From contig JBAZUU010000001.1 of assembly GCA_041661275.1 (NCBI GenBank), forward strand, positions 35,493 to 99,492: a stretch of 64,000 nt of DNA. Direction: 5' to 3'. Made by a program: the position numbers and the translations under genes. Below are positions 10,185-61,819 of the stretch, in pieces (positions within the stretch are counted from its first letter, which is position 1; the number at the start of each line of letters is the position of its first letter). The DNA comes from Parcubacteria group bacterium (GTDB lineage Bacteria; Patescibacteriota; Minisyncoccia; Moranbacterales; UBA2206). Below the pieces are notes generated by a model. The model did not search any database, was not told the DNA's origin, and saw only the letters and a program-made list of their open reading frames with translations.

Positions 10185-10240
10185 TCTCTACTAATTACTA
10201 ATCAAATACTAATATACCAATCTCTTTTATTTGTAATTAG

Positions 10241-10270: not shown

Positions 10271-10291
10271 GAAAGAATTAATTTATTGTAA

Positions 10292-10519: not shown

Positions 10520-10523
10520 TTTT

Positions 10524-11590: not shown

Positions 11591-11985
11591 GGGGATGAAC
11601 TGGTTTCGACAGATTGTACATTTAAAATATGCAAGCCGGGCCGAATACCCGTAAAAATATTCAAAATGTTATAAGTGCAAACTTACTAACGAAGGCAAAA
11701 ACTGTATTCGCGCAAGCGTTTACTTCAAATTTTGCTTACGCTACAGCCTAATTAATTTTAGACAGTAGCCATCGAACTGTCGAAGTCTCATAGACAGAAC
11801 TTGGTGTCAAACATGAGAATAGCGCGGATTGCATTTCCTTGGCAATATGCGTAAAATAAACATAGGGATAAGTTGAAGTAATTTTTTCTATTTTTATCTT
11901 TAACTGAAATTACCAAATAGGATAAGCTTGTAGATTATTTTGAATGAATAATTTTGGACGCGAGTTCGATTCTCGCCATCTCCAC
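11591..11985 (+). ncRNA. ssrA: tmRNA (SsrA)
   Basis: 5' GGGGATGAACTGGTTTCGAC. 3' GGACGCGAGTTCGATTCTCGCCATCTCCA is the tRNA-like T-arm/acceptor. Internal tag ORF is ...NFAYATA followed by TAA. Confidence 0.8.
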
Positions 11986-31546: not shown

Positions 31547-31603
31547 AGTGATATGGCAACACTACTACAATATCACTGCAATACGCTCGCCTGTGGATAA
31601 CTT
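31547..31603 (-). promoter_or_regulatory. promoter/operator element D: agtgatat-N15-atatcact inverted repeat plus box AAGTTATCCACAG upstream of the DpnI-like gene
   Basis: ctgtggataactt at 31591-31603. Inverted repeat arms at 31547-31554 and 31570-31577. Confidence 0.5.
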
Positions 31604-32252
31604 AATTTTCCCTAAATCTATTATAAAACAACTTCTCGCCTTCTCCGACCACTTTAATTTCATCATCGATGATCGCAACTGCCTGTTGATCAGTAAGGGC
31701 AACTATAGGTAAATTGGTTTTTTTCGCGCCTTCCTGGATAGCTTCAGAAAAATCTTTGGTATAGTGCGCAGTGAGTAAAAAAGGCACAAGATTCAGACCA
31801 GTGAGATCTTTTAGTCCAACCACATCCCTATCCTGATTTTTCCAATGTGACATTTCTATAGTTGGGCAGGCAACATAGCTTCCGGCGCTGACGCCTACAT
31901 AAATTTTTCCTTCGTCCAGAAGTTTTCCAATAATTTTGTCAAAACCACTCTTCCTGGCCCAATCGAGAAGATAAAAAGAATTTCCGCCGTTTACATATAC
32001 AATATCGCAGACTGATAGTTTTTCATATAACGATTCTTCATTCTCTTTTTCCAGATAAACTTCGTCAATTTCCATGCCCATTTCTTTCAACTCATCCTTT
32101 GCTTCCTCGACATAATCCCTGATAACTTCCGGATAGGCGGCTGTAGGAATAAAGCCAACCTTAAGACCACGAGGGTCTTTATCTAAAAAATCCAAAAAAT
32201 ATTTTCTGGTTTCTTCAGGCAATCCGGCCGATGTTAGAAATAATTTTCTCAT
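31602..32252 (-). CDS. peptidase E-like (S51 family) dipeptidase
   Basis: VYVNGGNSFYLL and VGVSAGSYV are S51 signatures. Confidence 0.7.
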   Translation of the reverse strand: MRKLFLTSAGLPEETRKYFLDFLDKDPRGLKVGFIPTAAYPEVIRDYVEEAKDELKEMGMEIDEVYLEKENEESLYEKLSVCDIVYVNGGNSFYLLDWARKSGFDKIIGKLLDEGKIYVGVSAGSYVACPTIEMSHWKNQDRDVVGLKDLTGLNLVPFLLTAHYTKDFSEAIQEGAKKTNLPIVALTDQQAVAIIDDEIKVVGEGEKLFYNRFREN

Positions 32253-45675: not shown

Positions 45676-45750
45676 TCCGGCGTAGCTCAATGGTAGAGCA
45701 GTTGACTGTTAATCAATTGGTTGTAGGTTCGAGTCCTACCGCCGGAGCCA
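45676..45750 (+). tRNA. tRNA-Asn (anticodon GTT), CCA encoded
   Basis: Acceptor stem tccggcg/cgccgga. D-arm agctcaatggtagagc. Anticodon loop ctGTTaa. T-arm gtagg-ttcgagt-cctac. Confidence 0.85.
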
Positions 45751-47319
45751 CATGGGATTTGCGTCGCCGAAAGCGGCGCTTTTTCTTTTTCTGGAGCGGT
45801 TTTTAAGAGGTTCGAACGCGCTCAAATTTTCCTCTTCCGGATTTGAGACGAGAATCATCGGCAGAAGCGCGGAATCCGTGTTAATATCGACTTTTTTGTC
45901 TTTTAGGAGGAGGTTCGAACCTAAGGCGGATAAAATTATTTTTCGGGCATGCTGACCTCTCTCGGTGAAGGATTCCTGAGCGTCACTGGCAAATTTGAGA
46001 ACATTATCGGCCGTCTCCAGCCAGCTATCGACTCGGCTGTCCGTATCGTTCAAAAGTTCGTGCAGTTTCGCTTTTTCCTGATTGGTCTTTGATTTTTTGC
46101 GCGTAAATTCTTCTTCGCTGATTTCTCCGGCCGCGCGCATATCGATAAGCGCGTCGAGTTTCTGGACGCAGGCTTCGTAGTTTTTTTGTTGGTTGGCGAG
46201 AATGGCGTTTCGATCGTCAGCCTCTCGTCCGTTTTCATTTTGCAGCCACTTCATCGCCCAGTCATGAAATTCCTGCGGCGGTCGCACTTGAGACAAGGTG
46301 CTTTTAACTTGTCTTTCCAGTTCTTTCACTTCGATGCATTTCTGACTGCACGGACCTTTTCTTTTGGTGCAATGATAGTAAGTGTAATTATGAATATTCC
46401 CGTTCTTATTTTTCTTAACTTTATTTTCCGCCGTCACCATAGCTCCGCATTCGCCGCAACGGATCATGCCGGTATAAGCGAAAGTATGCGTTTCCGGTTT
46501 CGGTTTACTGCCTCGGCCGAGAAGCGCCTGGACGCGATCATATTCGTCGCGGGTGATCATCGGTTCGTGTTTGCCCTTGTGCCAATTCCCACTGCCTTGC
46601 GGCCATTCAAACCAGCCGTAATAAAATGGATTATATAGCACCCGATAGAATCCGCTTCGCGCCAGCTTTTTCAATCCCCATTTCTCGACAGCAATTTCAT
46701 GAACTCTCGGCGCCGTATAGGTGCCACTTAAAATCATGTCGAACATCTTTCGGACAAGCGGAAACATTTTCGAGTCTTTGCGAATTGTTTTAAAGCCTTT
46801 CTGTTTGTCAGGCGTATTCATATATCCGATCGGCGCCGGGCCCGGATGCCAACCGAGCTCCACCTTGCGTCGGAGCCCTCGTTTCACATCGATGCCTTTG
46901 TTATCATTTTCCAGCTTGGCCTGGCTGCAAAGAAGATTGAGCAGAAATTTATCGTTGGGCGTATTTTTGAAAGGCTGGCCGGGTGTTTTTATTTCCTGCA
47001 GTTTATTTTGATCCATTAAATAAACCAGATAACCAGTGTCAACAGAATTTCTGGAAAGCCGGTTGGGATGCCAAGCTAGAATTCCGTTGGCTTCGCCTTT
47101 CTCAATCCGTTTTATCATTTCATTGAAAATCTCCCGACCCGGCGCTTTGGCCGAATATGATTCTTCAAGCAGACTCACGATTTGGAGTTTTTCACGTCTG
47201 GCCAGCGCTTCCAGTTCACCCTTTTGCGAATCGATTGAAAGCACCTGGCGGTCTTCTTGCTCCGATGACTTTCGAGCGTAGAGAAAATATTTAAGTTTTG
47301 ATTGCACTTCCTGGTTCAT
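45736..47319 (-). CDS. large serine recombinase (resolvase catalytic domain, recombinase domain, Zn ribbon); 3' end overlaps the tRNA-Asn 3' end
   Basis: N-terminal YARKSSEQEDRQVLSIDSQ holds the catalytic serine. Length 527 aa. The stop codon lies inside the tRNA T-arm/acceptor. Confidence 0.85.
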   Translation of the reverse strand: MNQEVQSKLKYFLYARKSSEQEDRQVLSIDSQKGELEALARREKLQIVSLLEESYSAKAPGREIFNEMIKRIEKGEANGILAWHPNRLSRNSVDTGYLVYLMDQNKLQEIKTPGQPFKNTPNDKFLLNLLCSQAKLENDNKGIDVKRGLRRKVELGWHPGPAPIGYMNTPDKQKGFKTIRKDSKMFPLVRKMFDMILSGTYTAPRVHEIAVEKWGLKKLARSGFYRVLYNPFYYGWFEWPQGSGNWHKGKHEPMITRDEYDRVQALLGRGSKPKPETHTFAYTGMIRCGECGAMVTAENKVKKNKNGNIHNYTYYHCTKRKGPCSQKCIEVKELERQVKSTLSQVRPPQEFHDWAMKWLQNENGREADDRNAILANQQKNYEACVQKLDALIDMRAAGEISEEEFTRKKSKTNQEKAKLHELLNDTDSRVDSWLETADNVLKFASDAQESFTERGQHARKIILSALGSNLLLKDKKVDINTDSALLPMILVSNPEEENLSAFEPLKNRSRKRKSAAFGDANPMWLRR

Positions 47320-48483: not shown

Positions 48484-48897
48484 CTATGGACTTTGACCAG
48501 GGTTCACTATGAACCCTGGGCTTTTGAAGAGTTGGGGGTTGATCCGGTAAATCGTTCCGGATCGATGGCCGTGTTTGGAAGTGTTGGTTTTCGTTTCGAT
48601 CAGTTCCAGCTGCAGCAATTTTTTTCTGACACGCTTGCAAGTTGATTGGCTGAATCCGTAGGCGGCAAAACCGCGTTCTTTTTCTCCGTGAGTCATGAAC
48701 ATCTTGTCAGTATGCCAAAACCAGCCGTCTTTGGCGGCGTAGCGATTGGAAAGATGACAAAGCACCAGAAAAAAATCACGCTCGGCGTGCGTCAATGAAC
48801 GACGTATTTTTGCATCGTCGAAGGGAGCGTGCGGAACTAAGAAGAAGTTTACATTTTTAGCGGGTGTTTTCGGGCTCGATTGATTCATATGGTTCAC
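48484..48897 (-). CDS. HTH-containing protein, possible replication initiator / transcriptional regulator
   Basis: 137 aa. FSQSTCKRVRKKLLQLELIE is an HTH-like segment. Confidence 0.35.
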   Translation of the reverse strand: MNHMNQSSPKTPAKNVNFFLVPHAPFDDAKIRRSLTHAERDFFLVLCHLSNRYAAKDGWFWHTDKMFMTHGEKERGFAAYGFSQSTCKRVRKKLLQLELIETKTNTSKHGHRSGTIYRINPQLFKSPGFIVNPGQSP

Positions 48898-50355: not shown

Positions 50356-50484
50356 TTTGCATCTCCTTTTTCTTGTCGACTTTATTGCCCATTCGACAAG
50401 ATAAGCCAGGGCGGGCTAATTAAATTAGAAAAAAACAGGCCTCTTCTACTAACGTCGCCAGTCGATGCTGACTTGCTATATTAG

Positions 50485-50545
50485 CACAAAACCAGCCCTG
50501 GGTCAATGGCTGGCTGATTTTAAGAATATTTTGCTTTATATAAGC
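50485..50545. repeat. 61-nt intergenic repeat copy E1 (terminator-like hairpin ccagcc..ggctgg plus conserved tail)
   Basis: About 85% identical to 52740-52800, in the same orientation. Confidence 0.6.
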
Positions 50546-50560
50546 TGTTTTACTAACGGA

Positions 50561-50953
50561 TTATTTTGAATAATATTCTTCCTTGGCTTCTTCTGGTTCT
50601 TCAAGAGTGTTATAATCGACAGTTATTTCTTCCCCCGCTGGAATATCGCGCAAAGCATAGTAATTGTAATTTTTATGATAAGTATTTGGTGTTTTGGAAT
50701 GGTTAATATACCAGCCGATTTCCATATGGCCAAAATTTCGCGGACAACTTAGCATATCGCCCCTGTCTGCGCAAAATTGTCTAAAAAATTCAGGAACATC
50801 TTCTTTCTTTCTGGTAACTGCTATTCTTCCTTCGTCTTCTTCACGGAACAATCGCAAATACGTTCCTTTTTTAATATCGTGAGCGGCAAAAACACCAACG
50901 CCATGCTCGGTTGGTTTTAAAACAAATGAAAATTCTGTCGTTTTTTGATTCAT
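50561..50953 (-). CDS. SET-domain protein (putative protein lysine methyltransferase)
   Basis: GVGVFA..., NHSKTPN (NHSCxPN-like) and EEITVDY (ELxxDY-like). Start placed at the internal Met (MNQKTTEF). Confidence 0.65.
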   Translation of the reverse strand: MNQKTTEFSFVLKPTEHGVGVFAAHDIKKGTYLRLFREEDEGRIAVTRKKEDVPEFFRQFCADRGDMLSCPRNFGHMEIGWYINHSKTPNTYHKNYNYYALRDIPAGEEITVDYNTLEEPEEAKEEYYSK

Positions 50954-50987
50954 TTTTTTAGTAGTATCTCTTAAGTTAATCTTCGAG

Positions 50988-51809
50988 CTAAGCGTGATGA
51001 TTATTTTTGTCCCTGGTAAATACATAATAATACTGTTTCTCCAAAACCGGCCCCAATTCTTTTTTGAATTGAATAAGCCCCGGGTCATGACAGCCTGTCC
51101 CCAGTGAAAATAAATCGCGGTCAGAAAACAACTTGGCTCGTTCATGGTGAAGAAATCTGCTCAGCCCCTTGTAATCATAATTCGCCTTTAGGTGAAGACC
51201 TGCCCAGTTGTGATCTGAATGACCAACGCCCCAAGCAAATCCGGCTAATTTACCATCAATTTCTACGTATATTTGCTTGATGTCATATTTTTCCAGGTTT
51301 TCCAAACAGAAGAAAAAGAACTCAGTGCTTTCTTTTTCAAATAAATCTGACGATCTTTCTTTTTGCCCTTCCCAAAGATTATAAAATTCAGTAAGTTTGG
51401 TTTTGGAATAATTGTTTAAAATATTATAATCATAGCTTTTGTTAAATTGATTTACCCGGTTTTTCATTTTGCTTTTAGGATCAAGAAAGCCGCTGGTTTT
51501 ATAATAATATTCCGTTTCAGTCGGATTTTGATTGGCAATTTCTATATCTTCTTTTTTAATCTTTTTTACCTCTTCCTCGGTTATCATGGACATGGAAGCC
51601 ATTGCCCAATTATCTTTGTTTTTAGGCAGAAAAAGAGAAGGAAAATCGTGGAGATAAGAAGGATCCTGGGTGACGATCAGGTCTTCGCCATTGCGTTTAA
51701 AAGTATAAGCACAAAAATCAAGATAAAGAGGCAATGATACATAGGAAAAAGGCAAATCATTTATTAGCTTGATATGTTTTTTCGAATCAAATTTTTCCAT
51801 GGTTTTCAA
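50988..51809 (-). CDS. hypothetical protein (possible GNAT-fold DUF2156-like domain)
   Basis: 273-aa ORF. Weak resemblance only. Confidence 0.35.
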   Translation of the reverse strand: MKTMEKFDSKKHIKLINDLPFSYVSLPLYLDFCAYTFKRNGEDLIVTQDPSYLHDFPSLFLPKNKDNWAMASMSMITEEEVKKIKKEDIEIANQNPTETEYYYKTSGFLDPKSKMKNRVNQFNKSYDYNILNNYSKTKLTEFYNLWEGQKERSSDLFEKESTEFFFFCLENLEKYDIKQIYVEIDGKLAGFAWGVGHSDHNWAGLHLKANYDYKGLSRFLHHERAKLFSDRDLFSLGTGCHDPGLIQFKKELGPVLEKQYYYVFTRDKNNHHA

Positions 51810-51897: not shown

Positions 51898-52665
51898 TCA
51901 TATAGAAAGGATGTTTGCCAGAGGAGACCATGTTTTTTTGGATTTGATCTCTTCTTCGTGAAAAACTCCACTCTTCCAGAAAACTTTGAAGGCTTTTCCT
52001 CCTTTCCTGAAATTTATAACTCGATAGACTTGGTCGACTATTTCCAGGGCGGAATAATCGCCAAGAGCAACGCCAATGTCGCCATATTCTCGCAGCATGC
52101 TTTTGAAAGCCGGCCTACGCCATTCACCCTCCGATTCGTAATGTGGGCAAAGAGCAAAAGGGAGAAATCCCAAGCCATCTACTTTGATGGGCATCCAGTT
52201 GCTTGGATCCCTGATGCGCAGAGAATCAGAGACACTCCATTTGGACCAGCAGATTGCTCCGGCAGAAAGCCCGGAAAGGACAGCGCCCCGTTCTCCGGCT
52301 TCGCGAAGCATTTCGCCGATGCCTCGCTTTTCCCATTCGCACATCATGAGAGCTGTGTCACCGCCGCCCACATAGATAATATCCGCCCGATTGATCTTTT
52401 TTTGGATCTGTCTGTCGGTCAGTCCTCCTTTCGAAAGTTTGAGGTAATCAAGCTTGCATCCCAAGCGCGTTCTATAGACCCTGTAAATTCCGTGGCAATA
52501 ATCGACATTATCACCGCTGGCCGTCGGGATAAAAAGAAAATTAGGCGAACGCGATTTTGCTATTCTCACCCTAGCCAGTTTGACGATCTCTCTATCTACC
52601 GATAGTGTTTGCGGCAGTCGACAAGGGATAGATATTTCTCCTCCACCAATAGCTACGATTTGCAT
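51898..52665 (-). CDS. S51 peptidase (cyanophycinase/peptidase E-like), GC-rich gene
   Basis: IYVGGGDTALMM and LSGLSAGAICW are S51 motifs. Confidence 0.65.
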   Translation of the reverse strand: MQIVAIGGGEISIPCRLPQTLSVDREIVKLARVRIAKSRSPNFLFIPTASGDNVDYCHGIYRVYRTRLGCKLDYLKLSKGGLTDRQIQKKINRADIIYVGGGDTALMMCEWEKRGIGEMLREAGERGAVLSGLSAGAICWSKWSVSDSLRIRDPSNWMPIKVDGLGFLPFALCPHYESEGEWRRPAFKSMLREYGDIGVALGDYSALEIVDQVYRVINFRKGGKAFKVFWKSGVFHEEEIKSKKTWSPLANILSI

Positions 52666-52739
52666 GATTATAGCTCCCGTGTATGAGTCTGTATAAAAGA
52701 ACGCGATTCTGTCAAATAAATGTTGACATACTATACTAT

Positions 52740-52800
52740 CACAAAACCAGCCCTAGGTCAATGGCTGGTTAGTTTTGGTAGTATTTTGCCCTATATAAGC
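52740..52800. repeat. 61-nt intergenic repeat copy E2
   Basis: See E1. Confidence 0.6.
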
Positions 52801-52804
52801 CTAT

Positions 52805-53575
52805 TTATGGATGGAACTCCATTGCCCATTTATCCTTTCCTTTCCAACTGTCAAAAACTTTGCCAAATCCCTCTTTTATCGCTAATTCTTCAACCATTTT
52901 TAGGAGTTCTTGCTGGGTTTCCAAATCGGCATTCTTCAATACTTTGGAAATTTTGTCTAACAGTTCTTTATTGCTTATTGGCAACTTTTCCAGCGGAGCA
53001 ACTTCTAGTTCTTTTGGCAGGTAGCCGTAAAATGGAGCCAGCCTTTTGTGCAAAGCAAAGAGAGTAATAATCAGATTAGGAATGGAGCTGGCAGATTCAA
53101 TGTGAGCACCCAAAAGATTACCGCTCCGAATACACTTCACTGACCGAAAAACACCGTTCAGATAGTCGTCTATTCTTTCTCCTGTAAATTTCTTCCACTC
53201 GTCTTCAGGTATGGTTCCTTTGGAATCAATCAAATTTTGAATTTCACCCGTTTTATCAATTATCGCCTTAACTCTCGCGAAATCATATCTATCCCAAGCA
53301 AAATCCGTTCCCCATTCGGCATACTCTCTAAATTCAGACAATGATTGAACTGATAAATCAATATCGGGATTGTCGATATTGGAATACTTGGTTTTATATT
53401 CCTCGGCGACTTCATCTTTTACAATTATTTTTATATCATAGTCGGACTTCCCGTTTTCAAATCCTTTTCCCCGCGAACCCTTGAGAAAAAGCCCGATGAT
53501 ATTGTCGTCATTTTTTGCTTCTTCTAAAATTTGATTGTATAAATTTTCCTTTTCCATAAGTTTTATTTTACGCAA
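52805..53575 (-). CDS. nucleotidyltransferase resembling aminoglycoside 6-adenylyltransferase (ANT(6)/AadK-like)
   Basis: LFLKGSRGKGFENGKSDYDIKIIVKD parallels the AadK N-terminal NTase block. Length 256 aa. Confidence 0.55.
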   Translation of the reverse strand: MRKIKLMEKENLYNQILEEAKNDDNIIGLFLKGSRGKGFENGKSDYDIKIIVKDEVAEEYKTKYSNIDNPDIDLSVQSLSEFREYAEWGTDFAWDRYDFARVKAIIDKTGEIQNLIDSKGTIPEDEWKKFTGERIDDYLNGVFRSVKCIRSGNLLGAHIESASSIPNLIITLFALHKRLAPFYGYLPKELEVAPLEKLPISNKELLDKISKVLKNADLETQQELLKMVEELAIKEGFGKVFDSWKGKDKWAMEFHP

Positions 53576-54360
53576 ACATAAAATATAGGCGACTTATAAC
53601 AATTGAAGTCTTTTGACATCGACCCCTCCATCGCCTCGGCGTCTTCCTTGGATAATTCTCCCATCCTTTTTCTCATTACTAATGTAAATCCCGATTTTGC
53701 GATTATTTCTTCCATTTCCTTTTGGCTGGTGAAATGAATAAATTGATATCTTTTCTTCCCATCAACACGATAATTTCTTTCAAAAAACCAATCGCCAAAT
53801 TCGAGCTCTTGAAATTTAAATCCAAGAGGTTTTAAAATATAAAACTTAAGCCATTGCTTGACCCAGAGATACAGATAACTGCCGGAGTAATATCTTTGAT
53901 GGGCGGTGAGGATAAAATGGGATCCGGGTTTCAATACCCGATGGATTTCTTTCAAGGCCTTCAAACGATTGGAATGTCCTGGAATTTGCACCCAGCCATT
54001 GTTGGCAAATATCGCCCCATCAAAATAGTTATCTTCAAACTCCAATTTAGTTGCGTCTCCCACTCTGAAATCCACACTGGTTCCTTTTTCCAGTGCTACC
54101 CTTTTTGCTGTTTCAATCATGCCTGGGGTCAGATCAACTCCAATGACATCAAATCCCTTTTCGGATAAGACAAAGGCAGTCCTTCCTGAACCACAACCGA
54201 TATCAAGAATGTGGGAATTAGGTTTGAAATATTTTTTGATTAAAATATCTTCACTTTTCCATAATCCCTTTTTGGCAATTCTCAAATATTGCTCCTGGGT
54301 ATTCTTAGACCCGAATTCATCGATGCTTTCTTTTTTAATTTTTTCTATTGAGTTTTTCAT
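53563..54360 (-). CDS. class I SAM-dependent methyltransferase
   Basis: HILDIGCGSGRTAFVLSEKGFDVIGVDLTPGMIE is motif I/II. Confidence 0.75.
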   Translation of the reverse strand: MKNSIEKIKKESIDEFGSKNTQEQYLRIAKKGLWKSEDILIKKYFKPNSHILDIGCGSGRTAFVLSEKGFDVIGVDLTPGMIETAKRVALEKGTSVDFRVGDATKLEFEDNYFDGAIFANNGWVQIPGHSNRLKALKEIHRVLKPGSHFILTAHQRYYSGSYLYLWVKQWLKFYILKPLGFKFQELEFGDWFFERNYRVDGKKRYQFIHFTSQKEMEEIIAKSGFTLVMRKRMGELSKEDAEAMEGSMSKDFNCYKSPIFYVCVK

Positions 54361-55841
54361 AGTTCTCTAATATTAAGTGATAATATATTTTTCTCTGCTT
54401 CAAGAATATCTTTCATCTGGAAACTTTCTTCGCCCCACAATAGAACTTCCACTGGGCCGATAAAATAATTTCGTTGAAGCATAAAGTCTTTTAAAACGTT
54501 CCTCTCCTTCTGTATTAGTGGACGAATAGATTCGTATGCCTGAATAAAAGATTTGATTAGGCTATAACTCTTATTTTTCTTTAATATGGACCAAGCCACA
54601 ACTGCGACATCGCTGATCAAATAAGAATAATGGAGGTCGTCGAAGTCCAAAATACCAACCAATTTTTCACCGACGAATAGTGTATTCATAATGGTGAAAT
54701 CCGAATGAATATAAGCGGCAGGCCATTGTCCATAAATGGGCTTAAAATCTTTTGCTCTTTCTAAAAATTTAATCACAGACTTATTTTTTAATTTCGAAAA
54801 ATCAATTTTTGCCAATAGTTCGTTTTCATATTTTGACACTGATTCGTTTCCATTCTTCTGTTTGATATATTTCTGACTAACCAAATGCATTTTAGCAAGT
54901 GCTATACCAAATTCTCTGGCGGTTGATTCAGAATATTTCTCGATATGTTGGCCTCCAATAAATTCCATTAGCAGACTTTTCCAAGCAACATCATTAATAT
55001 TAGTAACATTAGCTGCCTTCCCCAGATTATTAAAAATTATTTGAGGAACGGGCAATCCTTCTTCTCTAAGAAAATTGACGAATCTCGCCTCTTCTTCAAT
55101 CCACTCCAACGGTTCATCAATATTATTCGGATAAATTCTTAAAACATACTTTTTATCGGAAACTATTTTGATGCTAGTGTTTTCAACGCCATATGGAATG
55201 ACTTCCATTGAAAAGTTACTGATATTCCAATTGGTCAACATCAAACCAATATTTTCCTTCGTCGGATTTATTTGATTTTCAGGAGAAATTTTTACAATCG
55301 GCCGCGTCTGAAACTCCTCTTTGGTCAATTCCATCTTCACTGTGCCGCTTAAAATCCATTCGCCGTTATGAAAAACAGTCCTGTCGTTATTTATTAAGTC
55401 GGCTTGTTTAAACCCCATTTTTTTATAAAACCCAATCGCTCTTTCATGTAGTTCACTAGTATCAAGCGTAACATTATCCACGTTTAATGTCCTGAAAGCA
55501 TAATCCAAAGTTAGTCTCGTCGCTTCACTTGCTACGCCTGTTCCCCAATAGCTTTTATTTAAAATAAAAACACTAAATTCACTCTCATTTCCTTCTCTTA
55601 TGCTTGATAAGGAAGTATACCCGATAAAATTATCTTCCTTATCATAAATCTCAAAAACTGGCCCACTTTCAATTTCATCAAGCAAAGACTTAAGTTCATC
55701 AATATTTTTTAGTTCCAGGGCTTGTTTAGCAAAACTGAAATATTGTACCACTTCCAATTCTTTAAACCATTTCAAAAGTAAAGGATAATTTTCCTCTGCC
55801 AACCCATCATTGAGATAAACTTTTTCTCCCTGCAATGTCAT
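54357..55841 (-). CDS. fusion protein: N-terminal GNAT acetyltransferase (RimJ/L-like) plus C-terminal APH/homoserine-kinase-II-like phosphotransferase
   Basis: GNAT segment YWGTGVASEA...GFYKKMGF. Kinase segment HSDFTIMN (HxDxxxxN) and ILDFDD (DFD). Confidence 0.65.
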   Translation of the reverse strand: MTLQGEKVYLNDGLAEENYPLLLKWFKELEVVQYFSFAKQALELKNIDELKSLLDEIESGPVFEIYDKEDNFIGYTSLSSIREGNESEFSVFILNKSYWGTGVASEATRLTLDYAFRTLNVDNVTLDTSELHERAIGFYKKMGFKQADLINNDRTVFHNGEWILSGTVKMELTKEEFQTRPIVKISPENQINPTKENIGLMLTNWNISNFSMEVIPYGVENTSIKIVSDKKYVLRIYPNNIDEPLEWIEEEARFVNFLREEGLPVPQIIFNNLGKAANVTNINDVAWKSLLMEFIGGQHIEKYSESTAREFGIALAKMHLVSQKYIKQKNGNESVSKYENELLAKIDFSKLKNKSVIKFLERAKDFKPIYGQWPAAYIHSDFTIMNTLFVGEKLVGILDFDDLHYSYLISDVAVVAWSILKKNKSYSLIKSFIQAYESIRPLIQKERNVLKDFMLQRNYFIGPVEVLLWGEESFQMKDILEAEKNILSLNIREL

Positions 55842-55844
55842 TCC

Positions 55845-56435
55845 CTATATCAAAACCATATTCCCATCTTCGACGAAGATAGCTTGGTCATCAGTTAGTT
55901 TGATTACTGATCCTTCTTTTCGTTTTGCTTTAAACTCCTCAATCATTTTCTCTTCTATCGGAGTATAGTGCGGAGATACGATATATTTAACCAGATTAAG
56001 ACCAGCCAAATCATTGAGGTTAATGTCGTTTATATCACCGATTCCCGCCACTTCAATATCCGGACCGGGAATAATGCTTCCGGCACTGACACCCAGATAA
56101 AATTTCTCCCGTTTTACCGCGTTGATCAAGACCTTGTCCATACCAGTTTTTCTCATTCGATCAAGGATATAAAAAGTGTTGCCACCGCATACATAGTAAA
56201 TATCATACTCTTTCAGATTTACAAAATTATTTTCTTCCGAAATGTTTATTTTGTCATATCGCAATCCGATTTCCCCCAGCTCTTTATCATATTGCTCGAG
56301 CCACTGCCAATCACTTTCTTCTCTGATAGTAAAAATCAAACAAGCTTTCTTGTCACTAAGCGTATCGAATTGTGAAATGAAAAAATCTCGTACTTTTTTA
56401 TTTTCTAATCCTGTTGAGGTTAGTAATAATTTCAT
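55845..56435 (-). CDS. S51 peptidase E-like protein
   Basis: YYVCGGNTFYIL and LGVSAGSII. Confidence 0.65.
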   Translation of the reverse strand: MKLLLTSTGLENKKVRDFFISQFDTLSDKKACLIFTIREESDWQWLEQYDKELGEIGLRYDKINISEENNFVNLKEYDIYYVCGGNTFYILDRMRKTGMDKVLINAVKREKFYLGVSAGSIIPGPDIEVAGIGDINDINLNDLAGLNLVKYIVSPHYTPIEEKMIEEFKAKRKEGSVIKLTDDQAIFVEDGNMVLI

Positions 56436-56459
56436 ATTTTATAATTTTTTATTTTAAAA

Positions 56460-57389
56460 CTATTTCTCTATTATGTTTTTGGTCTTTTTGCAAGTTACTA
56501 TAGTATATGGAATTTGCCAAGCATATGGCTCTTCGTGATGAGTAAGTACGCCTTGCAATCCTTCAATGTTTTGCCGAATATACTCTTTCGCTTCTTTCAT
56601 CTGTTCTTCTGGGGCGTTGATACGCCGAACAAAGAATTCATCGAATGTTTCATAAAGAGTAGGGCCATCTGCGATTTCTTCAATTTTATCAAATATTTTT
56701 CTGTGCAAATCTATCCCCTCTTCTTTTCCACAAAAATTTACCCTTCTTTTCGCAACATCAAACAGTCCATTAAAGCAATTCGCTTGTTCTTGAGTGTCAT
56801 AAGAACAAAATTGGCTAACTAGAATTCCGCCGGGTTTCAATATTCGTTTAATTTCTTCCAATATCTTAGCTTGATATTTGGGCTCTACATACTGTAAAAC
56901 GCTACGCAAAATAACTAAATCGGCGGTTTCACTAGCTAATGGCGTTTCCATTAGACTAGCTTCAATTTTTTCAGCCTGTACTGAGCTTTGCTTCATTGCT
57001 ACGGCATTTGTGTCAATCATAACCAATCTAGCATCAGAACCATTTTTTCTAAATTTTTCACGCACATAATTTCCAAGTGTCCCCTGGCTCGATCCCGCAT
57101 CAACTATTGTCGCATTTTCCCTATCATATATTTCATTTGGAATATGTCGAGCAAAAATTTCACAATTTTCCTCACTTCCAAAAAAACCTTGGTATAACTC
57201 CTCCAAAGCTCTTGCCTTCCCCTCTCCTGCTCTTGTCGCCAATTCTATATCCTGTTTCATTCCAGATTCAACATTTTCACTCTCTTGCTTTTTTATAGAT
57301 GATTCTTTTTTGTGTTCGAAATTCATATTTTGATTATACACAGACGCTTCATTTTTTCCGATATCTTCAGATACAGGAAATTGACTCAC
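56460..57389 (-). CDS. class I SAM-dependent methyltransferase
   Basis: VDAGSSQGTL...ILKPGGILV. Confidence 0.65.
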   Translation of the reverse strand: MSQFPVSEDIGKNEASVYNQNMNFEHKKESSIKKQESENVESGMKQDIELATRAGEGKARALEELYQGFFGSEENCEIFARHIPNEIYDRENATIVDAGSSQGTLGNYVREKFRKNGSDARLVMIDTNAVAMKQSSVQAEKIEASLMETPLASETADLVILRSVLQYVEPKYQAKILEEIKRILKPGGILVSQFCSYDTQEQANCFNGLFDVAKRRVNFCGKEEGIDLHRKIFDKIEEIADGPTLYETFDEFFVRRINAPEEQMKEAKEYIRQNIEGLQGVLTHHEEPYAWQIPYTIVTCKKTKNIIEK

Positions 57390-57443
57390 TGCAATTTAAT
57401 TTATGGATAATTTAAATATCGTACCAATCTCGAGGAAATATTG

Positions 57444-58322
57444 TCAGGACTGAGATAATATCATTTTTAGTTTCTTTATTATCCTAGTCATGCCTTCTGA
57501 TTTTTTATTTTTTTGATAAAACCAAAACCAATTCATCATCGCTATAATAGTATCCTCCTTAATCTGGAAAAATAAATCATCATTTTTGGCACCATAATAA
57601 TTCAGAATATCTTTCAAAAACTGATCATTACTTTTTTTATTAAAATCAACCAAATCCATAAAATCCATCGCCGGTATGCCGAGCCCCGCTTCTGCCCAAT
57701 CCAAGATGCCGGTAATTATTTTCTTATCCGGATCCCAAAGAATGTTGTTGAAATATAAATCGCCGTGTATAATTGTTGCTGGATTTTCAAAATTACTAGG
57801 ATTATTGGCAATAGCTTTCAGCTTGGCGTTGAGAATCTTAAGCTCATCAGCACTCAAGTATTGTGCTATCAACTTGGGACAAGATCTATAATCACTTTTT
57901 CTCATCACTAAGTATCCAGTGTCGAAATTAATTTTTTTGTCTTTAAATCCGTGGAGTGCTTTTAAAAACAAGCCGAGCTGTTTTGCGATTTTGAGCCTTT
58001 CTTTCGGAGCAAGTTTTTCGATGTCAGATGGGCGAGGGTGTTTTCCAGGTATCTTTTTATAACCAATAAAACCATCGCCAAGGTATTTTGGTGCCGGCAC
58101 TGCCAGAGGAGACACCTTAGAAAATGAGACTAAGAAATCCAATCTTTTTTCCATTTTTTCTTTAGCGTCGTCGTTTCTGGGAAATCGAAAAATCCATTTT
58201 TCATTAACTTCAATAATCAGACTTTCCGTGCCTCTATTTACTGCCTTGTATGAATTGATCTTGAGACCTGTAGCCATTCTTATCTCTTCGATTCTTGCGG
58301 CGATTGATTTTTGCTTTGTCAT
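57444..58322 (-). CDS. aminoglycoside/choline-kinase-family phosphotransferase (APH-like)
   Basis: IIHGDLYFNNILW (HGDxxxxN) and GILDWAEAG. Confidence 0.7.
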   Translation of the reverse strand: MTKQKSIAARIEEIRMATGLKINSYKAVNRGTESLIIEVNEKWIFRFPRNDDAKEKMEKRLDFLVSFSKVSPLAVPAPKYLGDGFIGYKKIPGKHPRPSDIEKLAPKERLKIAKQLGLFLKALHGFKDKKINFDTGYLVMRKSDYRSCPKLIAQYLSADELKILNAKLKAIANNPSNFENPATIIHGDLYFNNILWDPDKKIITGILDWAEAGLGIPAMDFMDLVDFNKKSNDQFLKDILNYYGAKNDDLFFQIKEDTIIAMMNWFWFYQKNKKSEGMTRIIKKLKMILSQS

Positions 58323-58384: not shown

Positions 58385-60208
58385 CTACTTTTGCACAATA
58401 TTCTCCAGCCTTTCTTTTCCCATTATATGCAACTCCGATATAGCGCGAGTAAGCGCCACATAAAGAAGATCTTTGTTAATTCTCTTTTTCTCTTCAGCTA
58501 AATCAACATGCCCCTTATCTTGATAATCAGCAAACATTTCTTTGCTGACGCCCACAATAATAACAACGTCAAACTCCACTCCCTGCGCTTCATTCATCGT
58601 CATTGCATGCACTTTGTTGTTATCGCTAAAAGTACTTTTGAACTGAGTCAAATAATTCTCTTCTTTGGCTAATATTCCGACACTGGAAAAATTATTTGTC
58701 GCAATGATTTTTTTGATTTGTTCGATTTCTTCATCCTTGCTTTGAAAAATATATTCTTCCACCGCTTTTCCTTCCTTTAGCTGATCGAGTATTTCAATGT
58801 CATATCCCAATTTTTTGATATATCGCAAAATGTTTTTTGTGTTCCGATAAACTTTTTGCAGCGTTACCTTTCGTTCCTCTTCCATTTTTTCCTCGATATC
58901 TTCCCAATGGCGGATCGTTCCCAGCTTCACTTGCTGAGCCATATCTCCGACATAAACCGTTGATTGGCTTTTCTCGCTGATACAAGATTTTATAAGCCGC
59001 AATTGATCCGGCAAATAGTTTTGGAATTCGTCGATTACCGCTAAGGAATATTCCAAGGGTACCGCTTCCTTCTTCTTTTTTATGGATCCGTTCCTTTGCT
59101 GGATATATCGATCTCTAATCACACTTAAACCCTCGCTGCTCGCGTAAGATATTTTCAGAAGTAAGGTTAAGTCAATTCTGTCATACGCCCTCTCTTCCTT
59201 TTGACGCTGAAACAAAGTTTTTTTCTCGTTGTTCAAATACTTTCCATAAACTTTTTCAAGTATTGAGTGCGAATCTGATTTTGCATATGTCTGCTTGGAT
59301 AAATTATTCAAAGCTTTCAATTTGTAAAACTCATATAAGTCCTTCTCGTACTCACTATCTCCGTATCTTTCCGTAAAATTACCATCCATGCCAAGAATCT
59401 CAAACGCCCATTCGGAAAAAGTAACGATTTTGACATCATCGATACCGAGCTCCGGCAGAAGATGGGAGAAATACTCCTTGGTGCCGTTATCCTGAACGAA
59501 GACTATGATGGATTTGCTGGTGTAGATGTCGGCCAAGTCCGGAGATTGAACAAGATAGGCCACCCGATGAAGAGCCAGGGTGGTCTTGCCGCTTCCAGCC
59601 GGACCGGAGATCAAAAACGATCCTTTATGATAAGCGCGAATTACCTGATCCTGCGCCTTTTCCATTTGAGCCACAATTTCTGGAAGAATGAAGCCTGTTT
59701 TTTTGGTGGAAAAATATTCTTCATATATCAGTTCCCGCGGCTCGGATATCGTTTCCGAAGACAGAAATTTTATTTTTCTATCAACAATCATAAATTGATC
59801 TTTCCTGAGCAGTTTTACTTTCTGTATCATTCCGTCCGGACGCTTATAGCTCACGTCGCCCGGCTTTTCAAACCGAATCACTGAAGCCGGAGTTATCCAG
59901 GAATAAATATCCCTGTCGCTGAATCCAAACTTGCCAAAGTAGATTCTGTTTTCTTTTTCTTCCCCGCTAAACACAATATCGCAGCGCACAAAATAGGGCG
60001 AGCCTTTTAAATGCTTCAGCTCATTGATTCTTTTTTCATTGTTGGCGATGATCGTACTCTCTACCATCTGGTCGGCGTAGGAAAGCGTGCTGAACCTCTC
60101 CTTGCTTAATTTGAGTGACTTCTCCACTTTAGCAAGACCATTTTTCAGGCTCATACAAACAGACGCCAAATGTTCCCTGGCGAGGGATAGAATTTTTTCT
60201 TTGTCCAT
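58385..60208 (-). CDS. UvrD/Rep-family SF1 DNA helicase (HelD-like)
   Basis: Walker A GPAGSGKTTLALHRVAYL, VYVGDMAQQV, ALTRAISEL. Confidence 0.7.
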   Translation of the reverse strand: MDKEKILSLAREHLASVCMSLKNGLAKVEKSLKLSKERFSTLSYADQMVESTIIANNEKRINELKHLKGSPYFVRCDIVFSGEEKENRIYFGKFGFSDRDIYSWITPASVIRFEKPGDVSYKRPDGMIQKVKLLRKDQFMIVDRKIKFLSSETISEPRELIYEEYFSTKKTGFILPEIVAQMEKAQDQVIRAYHKGSFLISGPAGSGKTTLALHRVAYLVQSPDLADIYTSKSIIVFVQDNGTKEYFSHLLPELGIDDVKIVTFSEWAFEILGMDGNFTERYGDSEYEKDLYEFYKLKALNNLSKQTYAKSDSHSILEKVYGKYLNNEKKTLFQRQKEERAYDRIDLTLLLKISYASSEGLSVIRDRYIQQRNGSIKKKKEAVPLEYSLAVIDEFQNYLPDQLRLIKSCISEKSQSTVYVGDMAQQVKLGTIRHWEDIEEKMEEERKVTLQKVYRNTKNILRYIKKLGYDIEILDQLKEGKAVEEYIFQSKDEEIEQIKKIIATNNFSSVGILAKEENYLTQFKSTFSDNNKVHAMTMNEAQGVEFDVVIIVGVSKEMFADYQDKGHVDLAEEKKRINKDLLYVALTRAISELHIMGKERLENIVQK

Positions 60209-60509: not shown

Positions 60510-61127
60510 ATGAACAAAATACCAACAAAAGGTGAATATTTAGAGGTCTTATTAAGATCTCCCAAAACCGTCTTTTCTACAAAAGATGCGGCTTTATTAT
60601 GGAACGAGACCGATAATGCCGTGGTTACTGACCGATTAAAAAAATATGTTAAAGCTGGAAAGTTAGTTCGACCATATCGCGGTTTGTATGCCAAAGATAA
60701 AAATTATAATCGCTTTGAAATTGCAACGCGAATCTATACTCCTTCTTACATCAGTTTCGAAACTGTTTTGACGAGAGCTGGAATCAACTTTCAATTCTAT
60801 AGCAATATTTTTGTGGCTTCATACGTAACTCGAGATATTCAAGCTGGCGATCAGTCGATTTCATTTGTCCGAATGAAAGACTATGTTTTAAGTAACACGG
60901 TCGGCATTGAACATTCGGACGGAATTGCCATGGCTACCAAAGAGCGCGCGTTCTTGGACAGAATTTATGTGAGCAAAGATTATCATTTTGATAATTTAAA
61001 CGCCTTGGATTGGGACAAGGTGTTTGAGATTTTGCCGATCTATAACAATAAGCGAATGGAAAAGAAGGTTGATGAGTATTTCGATCACTACAAAAGCGAT
61101 CAACCAATTAAACCAGAAAAAATATGA
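60510..61127 (+). CDS. AbiEi-like antitoxin/transcriptional regulator (type IV TA, abortive infection)
   Basis: N-terminal wHTH-like region. 4-nt overlap with the downstream AbiEii gene. Confidence 0.6.
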   Translation: MNKIPTKGEYLEVLLRSPKTVFSTKDAALLWNETDNAVVTDRLKKYVKAGKLVRPYRGLYAKDKNYNRFEIATRIYTPSYISFETVLTRAGINFQFYSNIFVASYVTRDIQAGDQSISFVRMKDYVLSNTVGIEHSDGIAMATKERAFLDRIYVSKDYHFDNLNALDWDKVFEILPIYNNKRMEKKVDEYFDHYKSDQPIKPEKI

Positions 61128-61819
61128 AATTAGATTATTCAAAACACAAAAATATCTTACTGCAGATTTTAAAGGACATTTATTCCGATACGTCTATTGC
61201 TCCCCATTTAGGATTTAAGGGTGGAACGGCCGCTTTATTGTTCTATGGATTAACTCGTGATTCGGTTGATTTGGATTTGGACTTGCTGAACGAAGAAAAA
61301 GAAATAGAAGTATTTGAAAAAATACAAAAAATTATCGCCAATTATGGGACGGTCGTCGATTCGAGAATTAAGAAATTCAATTTGCTTAACGTTCTTTCGT
61401 ATGCGCCCGGTGCGCAAAAAATAAAAGTCGAGGTCAACCGAAGACAGTTTGGCTCGAAATATGATCTTAAAACTTTGCTTGGCATATCAATGCTGGTCAT
61501 GATTGAGGAAGATATGTTTGCCCATAAGCTGATGGCCATGCATGAACGGATCGGCAAAACAAGTCGGGATGTTTATGATGTTTGGTTTTTCTTGGAAAAC
61601 CGCTGGCCCATTAACAAAGAAATTGTCGAACAACGTTCCGGTAAAACTTTCAAAAAAGTGCTGAAAATGACGGCTGAACAGTTGGAAAAGCTGGATAATA
61701 AACACGTATTGGATGGACTGGGTGATTTCCTGACAGATCCACAAAAAGATTGGGCTCGCGCCAAACTGAAAAGTGAAACGATATTTTTACTAAAAGCTCG
61801 AGCGGAGAGTGAAAAATAA
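61124..61819 (+). CDS. AbiEii/AbiGii-family nucleotidyltransferase toxin (DUF1814)
   Basis: LGFKGGTAALLFYGLTRDSVDLDLDL is the family signature. Confidence 0.75.
   Translation: MKLDYSKHKNILLQILKDIYSDTSIAPHLGFKGGTAALLFYGLTRDSVDLDLDLLNEEKEIEVFEKIQKIIANYGTVVDSRIKKFNLLNVLSYAPGAQKIKVEVNRRQFGSKYDLKTLLGISMLVMIEEDMFAHKLMAMHERIGKTSRDVYDVWFFLENRWPINKEIVEQRSGKTFKKVLKMTAEQLEKLDNKHVLDGLGDFLTDPQKDWARAKLKSETIFLLKARAESEK

Follow-up and report, generated by a model that had tools for sequence, protein, structure and literature searches.

A lineage-specific array of genes related to small-molecule-modifying enzymes beside a HelD-like gene in a Parcubacteria genome

In the aminoglycoside-resistance enzyme AAC(6')-Ie/APH(2'')-Ia (PDB 4qc6, 4ork), a GNAT acetyltransferase forms the N-terminal part and an APH-fold kinase the C-terminal part of a single polypeptide. 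The sections of Maatouk et al. 2021 (PMC8651080) that were consulted describe AAC-, APH- and ANT-like genes, 20–40% similar, in nearly all CPR genomes; they give per-gene counts, report no functional tests of the aminoglycoside-type matches, and mention neither the array described here, nor its pairing of S51 peptidase with GNAT, nor a series of GNAT fusions. CPR ‘resistance’ methyltransferases gave no resistance phenotype in E. coli (bioRxiv 10.64898/2026.07.13.738296). HelD and HelR proteins shield RNA polymerase against rifamycins (bioRxiv 10.1101/2021.05.10.443488; PMC12802891), and those of actinobacteria are found with rifamycin-inactivating enzymes.

The locus studied here lies on a contig of a tiny Parcubacteria (CPR) metagenome-assembled genome, within an analysed stretch of 64,000 nucleotides (the window). 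It shares with the CPR repertoire its divergent AAC-, APH- and ANT-like genes, and with the actinobacterial loci an RNA-polymerase-rescue helicase encoded beside small-molecule-modifying enzymes. However, none of these enzymes is an Rph, Arr, Rgt or Rox, and the HelD-like protein is short, scoring 148.9 bits against the NCBIfam HelD_BACSU cut-off of 419, with weaker, likewise sub-cut-off, HelR matches.

Gene layout and predicted transcription units

The interval 52805–58322 holds six ORFs, all on the minus strand (Table 1); each has a significant Pfam match and is also called as a gene in the publicly deposited copies of this contig. The original prediction had counted seven consecutive genes, a number reached only by including one of the two co-directional genes on the flanks (HelD-like upstream, the peptidase S51b downstream). 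Its domain calls (a GNAT+APH fusion, a stand-alone APH, an NTase, two class I methyltransferases and an S51 peptidase) are correct. One of its two ATGA start/stop overlaps, at 54357–54360 between the fusion stop and the MTase2 start, is present in the sequence; the other, at 53563–53575, is a 13-nt overlap that arises only with a TTG start at 53575, whereas public gene calls start the NTase at the ATG at 53557 and leave a 5-nt gap.

Table 1 Features of the array and its surroundings (window coordinates)
Feature	Position	Strand	Length	Basis or remarks
tRNA-Asn	45676-45750	+		ARAGORN
Large serine recombinase	45736-47319	-		Pfam Resolvase + Recombinase + Zn_ribbon_recom
SET-domain methyltransferase	within 50561-51145	-	130 aa (public gene call)	Pfam SET 50.7 bits
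DUF2156/LPG_synthase_C-like gene	50988-51809	-		Pfam LPG_synthase_C 27.1 bits (cut-off 27.5)
S51b, second S51 peptidase (cyanophycinase/PepE-like)	51898-52665	-	255 aa	Pfam Peptidase_S51 140.6 bits
Intergenic repeat (family D1)	52720-52807	-	88 nt	Second copy 50465-50552, 80% identity
NTase, two-domain Pol-beta type	52805-53575	-	250 aa (ATG at 53557)	Uncharacterised, mostly Patescibacteria family
MTase2, class I SAM-dependent	53563-54360	-	265 aa	Pfam Methyltransf_25/11 ~80 bits
GNAT (residues ~1-178) + APH-fold kinase (~183-494)	54357-55841	-	494 aa	Pfam Acetyltransf_3 62 bits, APH 82 bits
S51a, S51 (PepE-like) serine peptidase	55845-56435	-	196 aa	Pfam Peptidase_S51 105.7 bits
MTase1, class I SAM-dependent	56460-57389	-	309 aa (GTG start) or 288 aa (ATG at 57326)	Pfam Methyltransf_11/25/31
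Stand-alone APH-fold kinase, APH(2'')/Mph-like	57444-58322	-	292 aa	Pfam APH 91 bits
HelD-like superfamily-1 helicase/RNA-polymerase recycling factor	58385-60208	-	607 aa	Pfam UvrD-helicase/UvrD_C

The shared strand is nothing special for this genome, because nearly every gene from ~13 kb to 60 kb of the window lies on the minus strand (a run of ~47 kb) and 24 of the 57 co-directional gene pairs are separated by 25 nt or less. Co-transcription is indicated only by the very tight MTase1–S51a–fusion–MTase2–NTase junctions: with spacings of −4, 3, 5 and 24 nt, the 3 nt lying between S51a and the fusion, MTase1 through NTase are taken to be co-transcribed. The remaining gaps measure 62 nt and, depending on the MTase1 start codon, 54–117 nt; both versions of MTase1 exist in public records.

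The HelD-like gene is the first of its co-directional unit and is preceded by a promoter-like site (TTGCCA-16-TATACT with a TG, 60367–60340). After the NTase gene, the 88-nt repeat contains an 8-bp hairpin followed by UUUUGUG, together with a promoter-like TTGACC-17-TAGTAT; such sites lie at 52761–52733 and, in the second copy, 50506–50478. The repeat probably marks both the end of the HelD-to-NTase unit, which is predicted to be a single transcription unit, and the point at which the following unit, headed by S51b, begins.

Affiliations of the individual enzymes

Catalytic motifs are intact throughout the array (GNAT motif, both kinases, NTase, the S51 Ser–His pair and SAM motif I), and the enzymes are apparently cytoplasmic and catalytically competent.

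The fusion protein had been likened to bifunctional AAC–APH enzymes, and the likeness holds for its order of domains, GNAT then APH, but not for the kinase half. The GNAT half groups with SpeG (38.9–44 bits) and only weakly with the AAC(6')-Ie family, for which it scores 34.8 bits where the cut-off is 340. The kinase half falls with homoserine kinase II, amicoumacin kinase and aminopropanol kinase rather than with APH(2''): its match to homoserine kinase II (NF003558) reaches 97.5 bits, below the equivalog cut-off of 271, and its closest Foldseek relatives are a homoserine kinase type II (2ppq), the amicoumacin kinase AmiN and an aminopropanol kinase (6ef6), with TM-scores, normalised to the target, of 0.68–0.74. 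Structure-based identity to these is 16–20%, and unlike them the kinase is joined to a GNAT domain. Since this group mixes metabolic and resistance kinases, the function of the kinase half is left unsettled. No protein among the best 150 matches in a search of 1.84 billion representative proteins covers both halves, and the fusion appears to be unique. It arose independently of AAC(6')-Ie/APH(2'')-Ia, because relatives encode the two halves separately and elsewhere the GNAT is joined to other domains.

The call of a stand-alone APH is borne out, its nearest characterised relatives being APH(2'') and macrolide Mph kinases. Grouping with homoserine kinases, which according to the original prediction would speak against resistance, applies to the fusion kinase half but not to the stand-alone kinase. 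The top PDB match of the stand-alone kinase is APH(2'')-Id (E 3e-20), and its best NCBIfam match is APH(2'')-Ie/IVa (64.7 bits, cut-off 600), with Mph families next in rank. It can be aligned with APH(2'')-IVa/Id and Mph from end to end and retains HGDxxxxN and the Mg-binding Asp of a DFG-like DW motif; the fusion kinase half likewise has the Brenner HxDxxxxN and a DFG-like Asp. However, its identity to APH(2'')-IIa and Mph(E) from plasmids is only 25–28%, it scores ~65 bits where the curated cut-offs of the matched APH(2'')/Mph families are 475–650, and it has Arg in place of the beta3 Lys of APH(2'') (WIFRFPR for FIFKFPK).

The NTase, described previously as ANT(6)-like, has in its structural model the two-domain architecture of ANT(4')/Lnu/ANT(6) enzymes, but it does not belong to the ANT(6) family: its match to PF04439 (19.4 bits, cut-off 22) is sub-threshold and spans residues 9–54 only, and the model lies closer to LinB and ANT(4') than to ANT(6). 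Even a 53-sequence profile detected no significant sequence similarity to LinB/Lnu(B), ANT(4')-Ia/IIb or ANT(6)-Ia; the GS...DxD motif is intact, and unlike those enzymes the family has its own invariant residues Y91, N134, R138, K141 and E183.

Of the two methyltransferases, MTase1 reaches no NCBIfam family cut-off, and the UbiE/ArsM/TehB-type matches of MTase2 are all below theirs; neither displays an rRNA-methyltransferase signal in NCBIfam (Erm/16S-RMT for MTase1). S51a belongs to a family (914 homologs, 60–78% identical across Moranbacteria/Parcubacteria) in which Ser117 of GVSAGS and His156 are invariant. As candidates for true aminoglycoside-resistance genes, the array proteins were rejected: they are similar at fold level only, with scores below cut-offs.

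Neighbourhoods of relatives and genomic setting

The conserved gene that anchors the neighbourhood is S51a. It was found in 79 loci of CPR and DPANN genomes and, as this distribution and its proximity elsewhere to Xer and RsgA genes suggest, is housekeeping-like. Core synteny across relatives, which had been raised as an argument against the resistance or tailoring reading, is confined to this gene; the array as a unit is not conserved in related loci. Across 1.2 Mb of related loci, no counterpart of the stand-alone kinase, MTase1 or the DUF2156-like gene occurs near any relative of S51a, the GNAT, the kinase or the NTase, which means that the array in its entirety is not a selected unit. Its content is patchy and lineage-specific.

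The conserved nucleus instead pairs an S51 peptidase with a SpeG/RimL-type GNAT downstream, which lies directly after S51a in L004, L012, L015/L097 and L021. Elsewhere this GNAT family (46–78% identity) is stand-alone or fused, to a Pol-beta NTase in L003 and to an amidohydrolase in L004 and L012. This adjacency and these fusions indicate that parts of the array are functionally tied. Single elements recur as well: in L095/L096 a minimal NTase comes directly after the GNAT and an 81%-identical MTase2 homolog lies two genes after it; S51 adjoins homologs of the kinase half in L005 and L101; an 85%-identical NTase directly adjoins a SET gene (45% identity) in L085/L086; and L003 and L013 have HelD homologs (64–72% identity) close to S51/GNAT genes, L003 also with a 39%-identical S51b homolog between HelD and the GNAT::NTase fusion. 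Other neighbours of GNAT homologs are exporters (EamA in L010, L088 and L089; ABC-2 in L087; ArsP in L021), NUDIX/MazG proteins and methyltransferases.

Placement inside a putative integrated island, as originally proposed, is plausible because a large serine recombinase abuts tRNA-Asn, the 3' end of its gene overlapping the tRNA (45676–47319), and an AbiE toxin–antitoxin pair also flanks the region. The island may end at the tRNA-Asn/recombinase junction; a second MAG has the recombinase as ‘partial’, with its two sides on separate contigs. The DUF2156-like and SET genes are additional small modifying enzymes downstream of the array.

Possible roles of the array

Aminoglycoside-type resistance, the role proposed originally, survives at the level of folds only, no protein reaching any curated resistance-family cut-off. 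That the array is a bona fide resistance operon, with an AAC–APH bifunctional enzyme, an APH(2'') and an ANT(6), is very unlikely: the domain order of the fusion, its weak AAC(6')-Ie match, the APH(2'') families heading the list for the stand-alone kinase and the ANT-type architecture of the NTase all point that way, but scores are about one-tenth of the cut-offs (34.8 versus 340; 64.7 versus 600), the fusion kinase half and the NTase have closer relatives elsewhere, and the fusion formed independently from halves that occur apart. The suggested alternative of tailoring or self-immunity enzymes is unsupported because no biosynthetic core enzyme lies nearby. Methyltransferases, kinases, acetyltransferases and NTases do occur together in aminoglycoside and nucleoside antibiotic clusters. 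However, the flanks hold no PKS, NRPS, RiPP, terpene, cyclitol or sugar-nucleotide core enzyme, the neighbours being HelD, AbiE, the recombinase, hypothetical proteins and cell-wall housekeeping genes; related loci likewise lack a core, and the DegT aminotransferases near a distant kinase homolog in L101 are absent here. A natural-product cluster is the least credible of all these readings.

Better, though still unlikely, is the proposal that unrelated housekeeping, salvage or metabolite-repair enzymes are adjacent merely through the compactness of a co-directional CPR genome; a dipeptidase, a polyamine or amino-alcohol acetyltransferase/kinase and methyltransferases are the activities envisaged. 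The long minus-strand run with its short gaps, the wide distribution of S51a beside Xer, RsgA and Fic genes, the NUDIX, MazG, ASCH and GDSL house-cleaning-type enzymes of related arrays, and top matches to homoserine kinase II, aminopropanol kinase and the polyamine acetyltransferase SpeG are consistent with it. Against it, the recurrent S51–GNAT adjacency and repeated GNAT fusions (kinase, NTase, amidohydrolase) argue for functional coupling, and the exporters beside GNAT homologs, the patchy content with its unique fusion and the mobile-element genes in the flanks are not what it would lead one to expect. It is improbable that the array is a HelD-linked regulatory or conflict module modifying ribosomal or RNA-polymerase proteins, tRNA or rRNA. 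Such a module would suit the RimL/RimJ-type Acetyltransf_3 domain, the SET protein methyltransferase downstream (and beside the NTase in L085), Fic AMPylators directly upstream of S51a in L004, L013 and L021, a YbaK-like tRNA-editing domain upstream of GNAT in L089 and L092, the binding of RNA polymerase by HelD, and the protein kinases YihE and CotS/CotI among APH-fold relatives; but for both kinases and the NTase the top-scoring relatives act on small molecules, neither methyltransferase carries an rRNA-methyltransferase signature, and PADLOC returned generic methyltransferase and helicase matches only for the array proteins, with no defence system.

We tentatively favour a lineage-specific, co-transcribed accessory set of cytoplasmic enzymes that inactivate small molecules, while nothing singles out aminoglycosides as their substrates. 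The absence of any match at a curated cut-off, the ~25% identity to real resistance enzymes, and compact co-directional gene strings being the norm in this genome count against such a defence, as do the lack of conservation of the array as a unit, the housekeeping-like distribution of S51a and the two CPR studies cited at the outset. If correct, the array would be the chemical-defence toolkit of an episymbiont facing the antibiotics of other microbes. The GNAT of the conserved S51–GNAT nucleus has become fused in this lineage to a homoserine-kinase-II/AmiN-type kinase, and around this nucleus stand the APH(2'')/Mph-like kinase, the ANT(4')/Lnu-type NTase and two small-molecule methyltransferases, all group-transfer or hydrolytic enzymes of the kinds that inactivate amine- and hydroxyl-bearing compounds. 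Incoming toxic compounds could then be N-acetylated, O-phosphorylated, O-nucleotidylylated, methylated or hydrolysed, with HelD rescuing stalled RNA polymerase. The intact catalytic motifs, the tight junctions, the signals bounding the unit (the promoter-like site before the HelD-like gene, and the hairpin and U-tract after the NTase), the GNAT fusions and S51 neighbourhoods of related loci, the exporters beside GNAT homologs, the recurrence of HelD near S51/GNAT genes, the patchy distribution and the accessory-looking setting are consistent with the proposed inactivating set, as are the nearest characterised relatives, which are antibiotic modifiers or ambiguous (APH(2'')/Mph, LinB/ANT(4')/ANT(6), AmiN/HSK II and SpeG/AAC(6')-Ie).

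Gene order and transcription

All six genes of the array have significant Pfam matches and gene calls in public copies of the contig. Seven genes had originally been counted; six open reading frames lie within 52805-58322, and a seventh is reached only by taking in the flanking HelD-like gene or S51b, the second S51 peptidase gene. Of the two ATGA junctions in the original prediction, that at 54357-54360 is borne out; the sequence at 53563-53575 is not an ATGA; the two genes overlap there, by 13 nt, only if TTG serves as the start codon, and the ATG at 53557 preferred by gene callers leaves a 5-nt gap. The remaining junctions measure 3, 24, 54-117 and 62 nt. Because short gaps and long one-strand runs are common in this CPR organism (~39% GC), co-directionality alone says little: nearly every gene between ~13 kb and ~60 kb of the window lies on the minus strand, and gaps between co-directional genes have a median of 60 nt in the window, 24 of 57 being no longer than 25 nt.

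Features of the window, in window coordinates
Feature	Position	Strand	Remarks
tmRNA gene	11591-11985	+	Predicted tag peptide ANLLTKAKTVFAQAFTSNFAYATA
DpnI-family methyl-directed restriction endonuclease	30663-31433	-	Close to third S51 paralog
Third S51 paralog	31602-32252	-	216 aa; 136 bits
tRNA-Asn	45676-45750	+	
Large serine recombinase	45736-47319	-	Last 15 nt overlap tRNA-Asn 3' end
88-nt repeat, partial third copy	48711-48726		
88-nt intergenic repeat	50465-50552		80% identical to next copy
S51b peptidase	51898-52665		Downstream of array
88-nt intergenic repeat	52720-52807		NTase-side copy
Pol-beta-type NTase	52805-53575	-	256 aa; 250 aa from ATG 53557
Second SAM-MTase (MTase2)	53563-54360	-	265 aa
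GNAT-APH fusion	54357-55841	-	494 aa
S51 peptidase (S51a)	55845-56435	-	196 aa
Class I SAM-MTase (MTase1)	56460-57389	-	309 aa
APH-fold kinase, stand-alone	57444-58322	-	292 aa
HelD-like gene	58385-60208		Upstream of array
AbiEi-like gene	60510-61127	+	Abortive infection toxin-antitoxin pair
AbiEii gene	61124-61819	+	4-nt overlap with preceding gene

A promoter-like site lies 5' of the HelD-like gene (60367-60340), and the likely transcription unit runs from this gene through the NTase gene, with S51b opening a new one. Both full copies of the 88-nt repeat, which surfaced during a search for tRNA-Asn att-type repeats, stand upstream of genes: S51b in one case and a 194-aa gene in the other. 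On the minus strand of the repeat, UUUUGUG comes after an 8-bp hairpin, AACCAGCC...GGCUGGUU; the repeat also holds a promoter-like TTGACC-17-TA(G/A)TAT with TG (TTGACC-17-TAGTAT in the NTase-side copy, where the hairpin comes right after the NTase stop). It could represent a terminator/promoter cassette that is used more than once, or else a small mobile repeat. A scan for intrinsic terminators performed at chance level (12 sites against 12.6 expected) and overlooked the hairpin at the NTase end because its loop is 10 nt long; folding revealed it.

Enzyme families in the array

Membership in resistance families was judged by NCBIfam resistance-family HMM scores, as a proxy for phylogeny against CARD references. 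The nearest characterized relatives of the stand-alone kinase are APH(2'') and Mph enzymes, to which it aligns over its full length. Its top model is APH(2'')-Ie/IVa (64.7 bits, cut-off 600), followed by APH(2'')-IIa and then the Mph families (30-44 bits against cut-offs of 500-650); the best PDB match is APH(2'')-Id (E 3e-20, residues 19-247), and plasmid-borne APH(2'')-IIa and Mph(E) share 25-28% identity with it. The catalytic HGDxxxxN and DFG-like Asp are retained, HGD/LDW aligning with HND/IDF. The beta3 Lys is absent, being replaced by Arg in WIFRFPR (residues 43-49; FIFKFPK in APH(2'')-Id), as is presumably also the case in Mph(A). A similar conserved segment, KYVLRIY, occurs in the kinase family of the GNAT-APH fusion.

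The fusion, in which Pfam places Acetyltransf_3 at residues 16-145 and APH at 213-437, resembles the bifunctional AAC(6')-Ie/APH(2'')-Ia in combining a GNAT and an APH-fold kinase in one chain, with the GNAT N-terminal in both. However, its GNAT half reaches only 34.8 bits against the AAC(6')-Ie model NF033693 (cut-off 340), below the SpeG models (~39-44 bits). Nor does the kinase half belong to APH(2''): it is homoserine kinase II-like by both HMM and structure. Homoserine kinase II (97.5 bits, cut-off 271) and CotS lead the models, and the sole APH family to appear in NCBIfam is APH(3') (E 4e-4). The AlphaFold model has a pLDDT above 90 in the kinase half and is weaker in the GNAT half; the structural ranking for the kinase half is led by homoserine kinase 2ppq, the amicoumacin kinase AmiN and the aminopropanol kinase 6ef6, with APH(2'')-IVa at rank 43. 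The domain combination itself appears unique in the databases searched. A search of 5.8 billion proteins with the fusion returned identical copies alone, 8000 word-sharing candidates contained no other GNAT-kinase fusion, and none of the best 150 of 3322 HMMER matches (among 1.84 billion representatives) spanned both halves; in the longer database proteins P0356, P0396 and P0282, the extensions are of other kinds or lack annotation.

The NTase had been called ANT(6)-like, a label that does not hold: PF04439 scores 19.4 bits against a threshold of 22 and covers residues 9-54 only of a 279-position model, and comparison with the PDB by sequence and by a 53-sequence profile gave no significant match (ANT(6)-Ib, E 0.42). 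Structure comparison is the sole informative route here. The protein comprises a Pol-beta domain and a C-terminal helical domain, and its top structural matches are ANT(4')/Lnu/ANT(6) enzymes. Thus, the NTase has the architecture of antibiotic NTases, yet constitutes its own family of ~250 aa, found mostly in Patescibacteria.

S51a is a clear S51 peptidase (Pfam Peptidase_S51, 105.7 bits against 23.9), with Ser117 (in GVSAGS) and His156 invariant in 25 homologs; the PepE equivalog is not reached (60.3 bits against 156). Its family is widespread in CPR bacteria and DPANN archaea (914 homologs, 79 species-level loci), where frequent neighbors are Xer recombinases, Fic or RsgA, and sequence comparison indicates a family that spans both domains and is found mainly in ultra-small episymbionts. 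DPANN members, at 35-44% identity, come from Woesearchaeota, Pacearchaeota, Nanoarchaeota and Aenigmatarchaeota (loci L024-L057; for example, L024, L028, L036, L039 and L057). With the third paralog, which is ~20 kb from the array, three S51 genes lie inside 25 kb of one reduced genome. MTase1 and MTase2 are generic class I enzymes of the small-molecule type. The HelD-like helicase is similar to HelD at the family level only (HelD_BACSU, 148.9 bits, below the cut-off of 419; two stretches, the better at residues 56-289). Downstream of the array lie S51b, a protein whose likeness to DUF2156/LPG_synthase_C is borderline, and another with a SET domain.

Neighborhoods in related genomes and readings of the array

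Relatives of the fusion GNAT (46-78% identity) are usually stand-alone proteins of ~178 aa, and their company varies. In locus L003 the GNAT is fused to a Pol-beta NTase distantly like that of the window (27% identity, pairwise E 6e-8), and in L004 and L012 to an Amidohydro_2 domain; it lies immediately 3' of S51a in L004, L012, L015/L097 and L021, the same position as in the window. Exporters or permeases are among its recurrent neighbors: EamA in L010, L088 and L089, ABC-2 in L087 and ArsP in L021. The others are NUDIX or MazG enzymes, TehB-like MTases and YbaK-like editing domains. In L095/96 the GNAT neighborhood contains a minimal NTase followed by an MTase2 homolog of 81% identity, L005 has a separate kinase 60% identical to the fusion kinase half, preceded by an S51a fragment and the gene for an RsgA GTPase, and HelD homologs (64-72% identity) are found close to S51/GNAT genes in both L003 and L013. 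An NTase 85% identical to that of the window ends a different array in L085/L086: Xer, S51, S51, GDSL, MTase, NUDIX, ASCH, Zeta/AAA_33 kinase, Ser-hydrolase, SET, NTase.

Fic-domain (AMPylase-type) genes of ~350 aa stand directly 5' of S51a in L004 (89-1144), L013 (6925-7992) and L021 (6534-7607), preceded by a Xer-like tyrosine recombinase in the latter two; in L015 such a gene (9623-10684) lies two genes downstream of the GNAT.

Since the GNAT/S51a pairings recur while the other genes vary, the comparison points to a conserved S51-GNAT nucleus surrounded by small modifying enzymes whose makeup differs greatly between loci, the window array being one idiosyncratic assortment. A conserved operon was considered and rejected because, for three of the genes (the stand-alone kinase, MTase1 and the DUF2156-like one), neighborhood counterparts are missing from the related loci (tblastn with all array proteins, 102 loci, 1.2 Mb). 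The array is real and moderately interesting; new are the apparently unique GNAT-kinase fusion, the pairing of S51 and GNAT in which partner domains are interchangeable, and an uncharacterized family of NTases built like antibiotic NTases.

The most economical reading, which we favor tentatively, is a chemical-defense toolkit of accessory, co-transcribed cytoplasmic enzymes that modify small molecules. These would act as antibiotic- or xenobiotic-inactivating enzymes do, and the HelD RNA-polymerase rescue factor would belong to the same HelD-to-NTase unit; HelD/HelR proteins shield RNA polymerase from rifamycins (10.1101/2021.05.10.443488; PMC12802891). Functional coupling of the parts is inferential, drawn mainly from the series of GNAT fusions and adjacencies and from the neighboring exporters. 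Against a toolkit stand the housekeeping-like distribution of S51a, the compact genome and a similarity to bona fide resistance enzymes that exists at the fold level only. In addition, AR-like matches are reported to be pervasive in CPR genomes (PMC8651080), and CPR 'resistance' MTases produced no resistance phenotype when expressed (10.64898/2026.07.13.738296). That the array instead consists of unrelated salvage or repair genes that merely neighbor each other is somewhat unlikely; the same compactness and S51a distribution sit here beside the recurrent GNAT/S51a pairing. A macromolecule-modifying module is improbable: although SET and Fic domains in the wider neighborhoods speak for it, neither MTase gives an rRNA-MTase signal in Pfam or NCBIfam. 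The original aminoglycoside label is not supported, the domain likeness to AAC-APH and the kinase alignment with APH(2'') notwithstanding, and a true aminoglycoside-resistance operon is very improbable. Biosynthetic tailoring or self-immunity, also raised at the outset, is scarcely credible: no core scaffold-forming enzyme was found by Pfam in the flanks from ~30 to 63 kb, where several open reading frames carry no annotation.

An extension of the toolkit reading, which we consider unlikely, is an undescribed, S51-peptidase-anchored CPR locus for 'combinatorial detoxification', in which one GNAT family of the SpeG/RimL type would be re-paired time and again, by fusion or adjacency, with kinase, NTase, amidohydrolase, MTases and exporters. 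On this view the fusion would have re-invented AAC-APH convergently and would act on a non-aminoglycoside toxin of the amino-alcohol, polyamine or aminoacyl type, shielding a minimal-genome episymbiont from antibiotics of its host or neighbors. As a speculative substrate idea, MccE/MccF-like aminoacyl-nucleotide immunity would bring together a RimL-type GNAT, a peptidase and YbaK-domain neighbors. If the enzymes do inactivate antibiotics, they would provide a concrete, testable case of chemical self-defense in uncultured ultra-small CPR bacteria, whose 'resistome' to date is a list of weak sequence matches with a negative functional test for MTases, and would add both a GNAT-kinase bifunctional modifier that evolved independently of the first and a new family of NTases sharing the architecture of the antibiotic NTases. 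Otherwise, the array counsels caution: fold-level AAC/APH/ANT likeness and tight packing in a compact genome are not evidence of an aminoglycoside-resistance operon.

Putative island and defense context

The array had been placed inside an integrated island, which is plausible but unproven. The recombinase does adjoin a tRNA gene; no second boundary was found, and a search of 43-64 kb revealed no att-type repeat of the tRNA-Asn 3' end. Large serine recombinases are not known to need such a repeat. GC content in the putative island region is only slightly lower (0.34-0.38), and cell-wall housekeeping genes (Ddl, Mur ligase, Lgt) lie to the left of the tRNA. Another MAG of this species has an assembly break inside the recombinase, which is partial there, with its two sides on different contigs; proteins at least 90% identical to this recombinase occur on several other contigs.

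For the ten proteins scanned, PADLOC returned nothing beyond generic MTase and UvrD-helicase matches, so the array fits no known defense system. Scans of viral contigs with the NTase and GNAT alignments gave no relatives, and hence no indication that phages carry these families. What looks like a prophage directly follows the S51-anchored array in L085 (1-20753; GCA_043955455.1, JBINOE010001063.1), where two tyrosine integrases, a DNA MTase, ParB and a TerL terminase come after it. In the window itself, the AbiE pair lies just beyond the HelD-like gene and is divergent from it.
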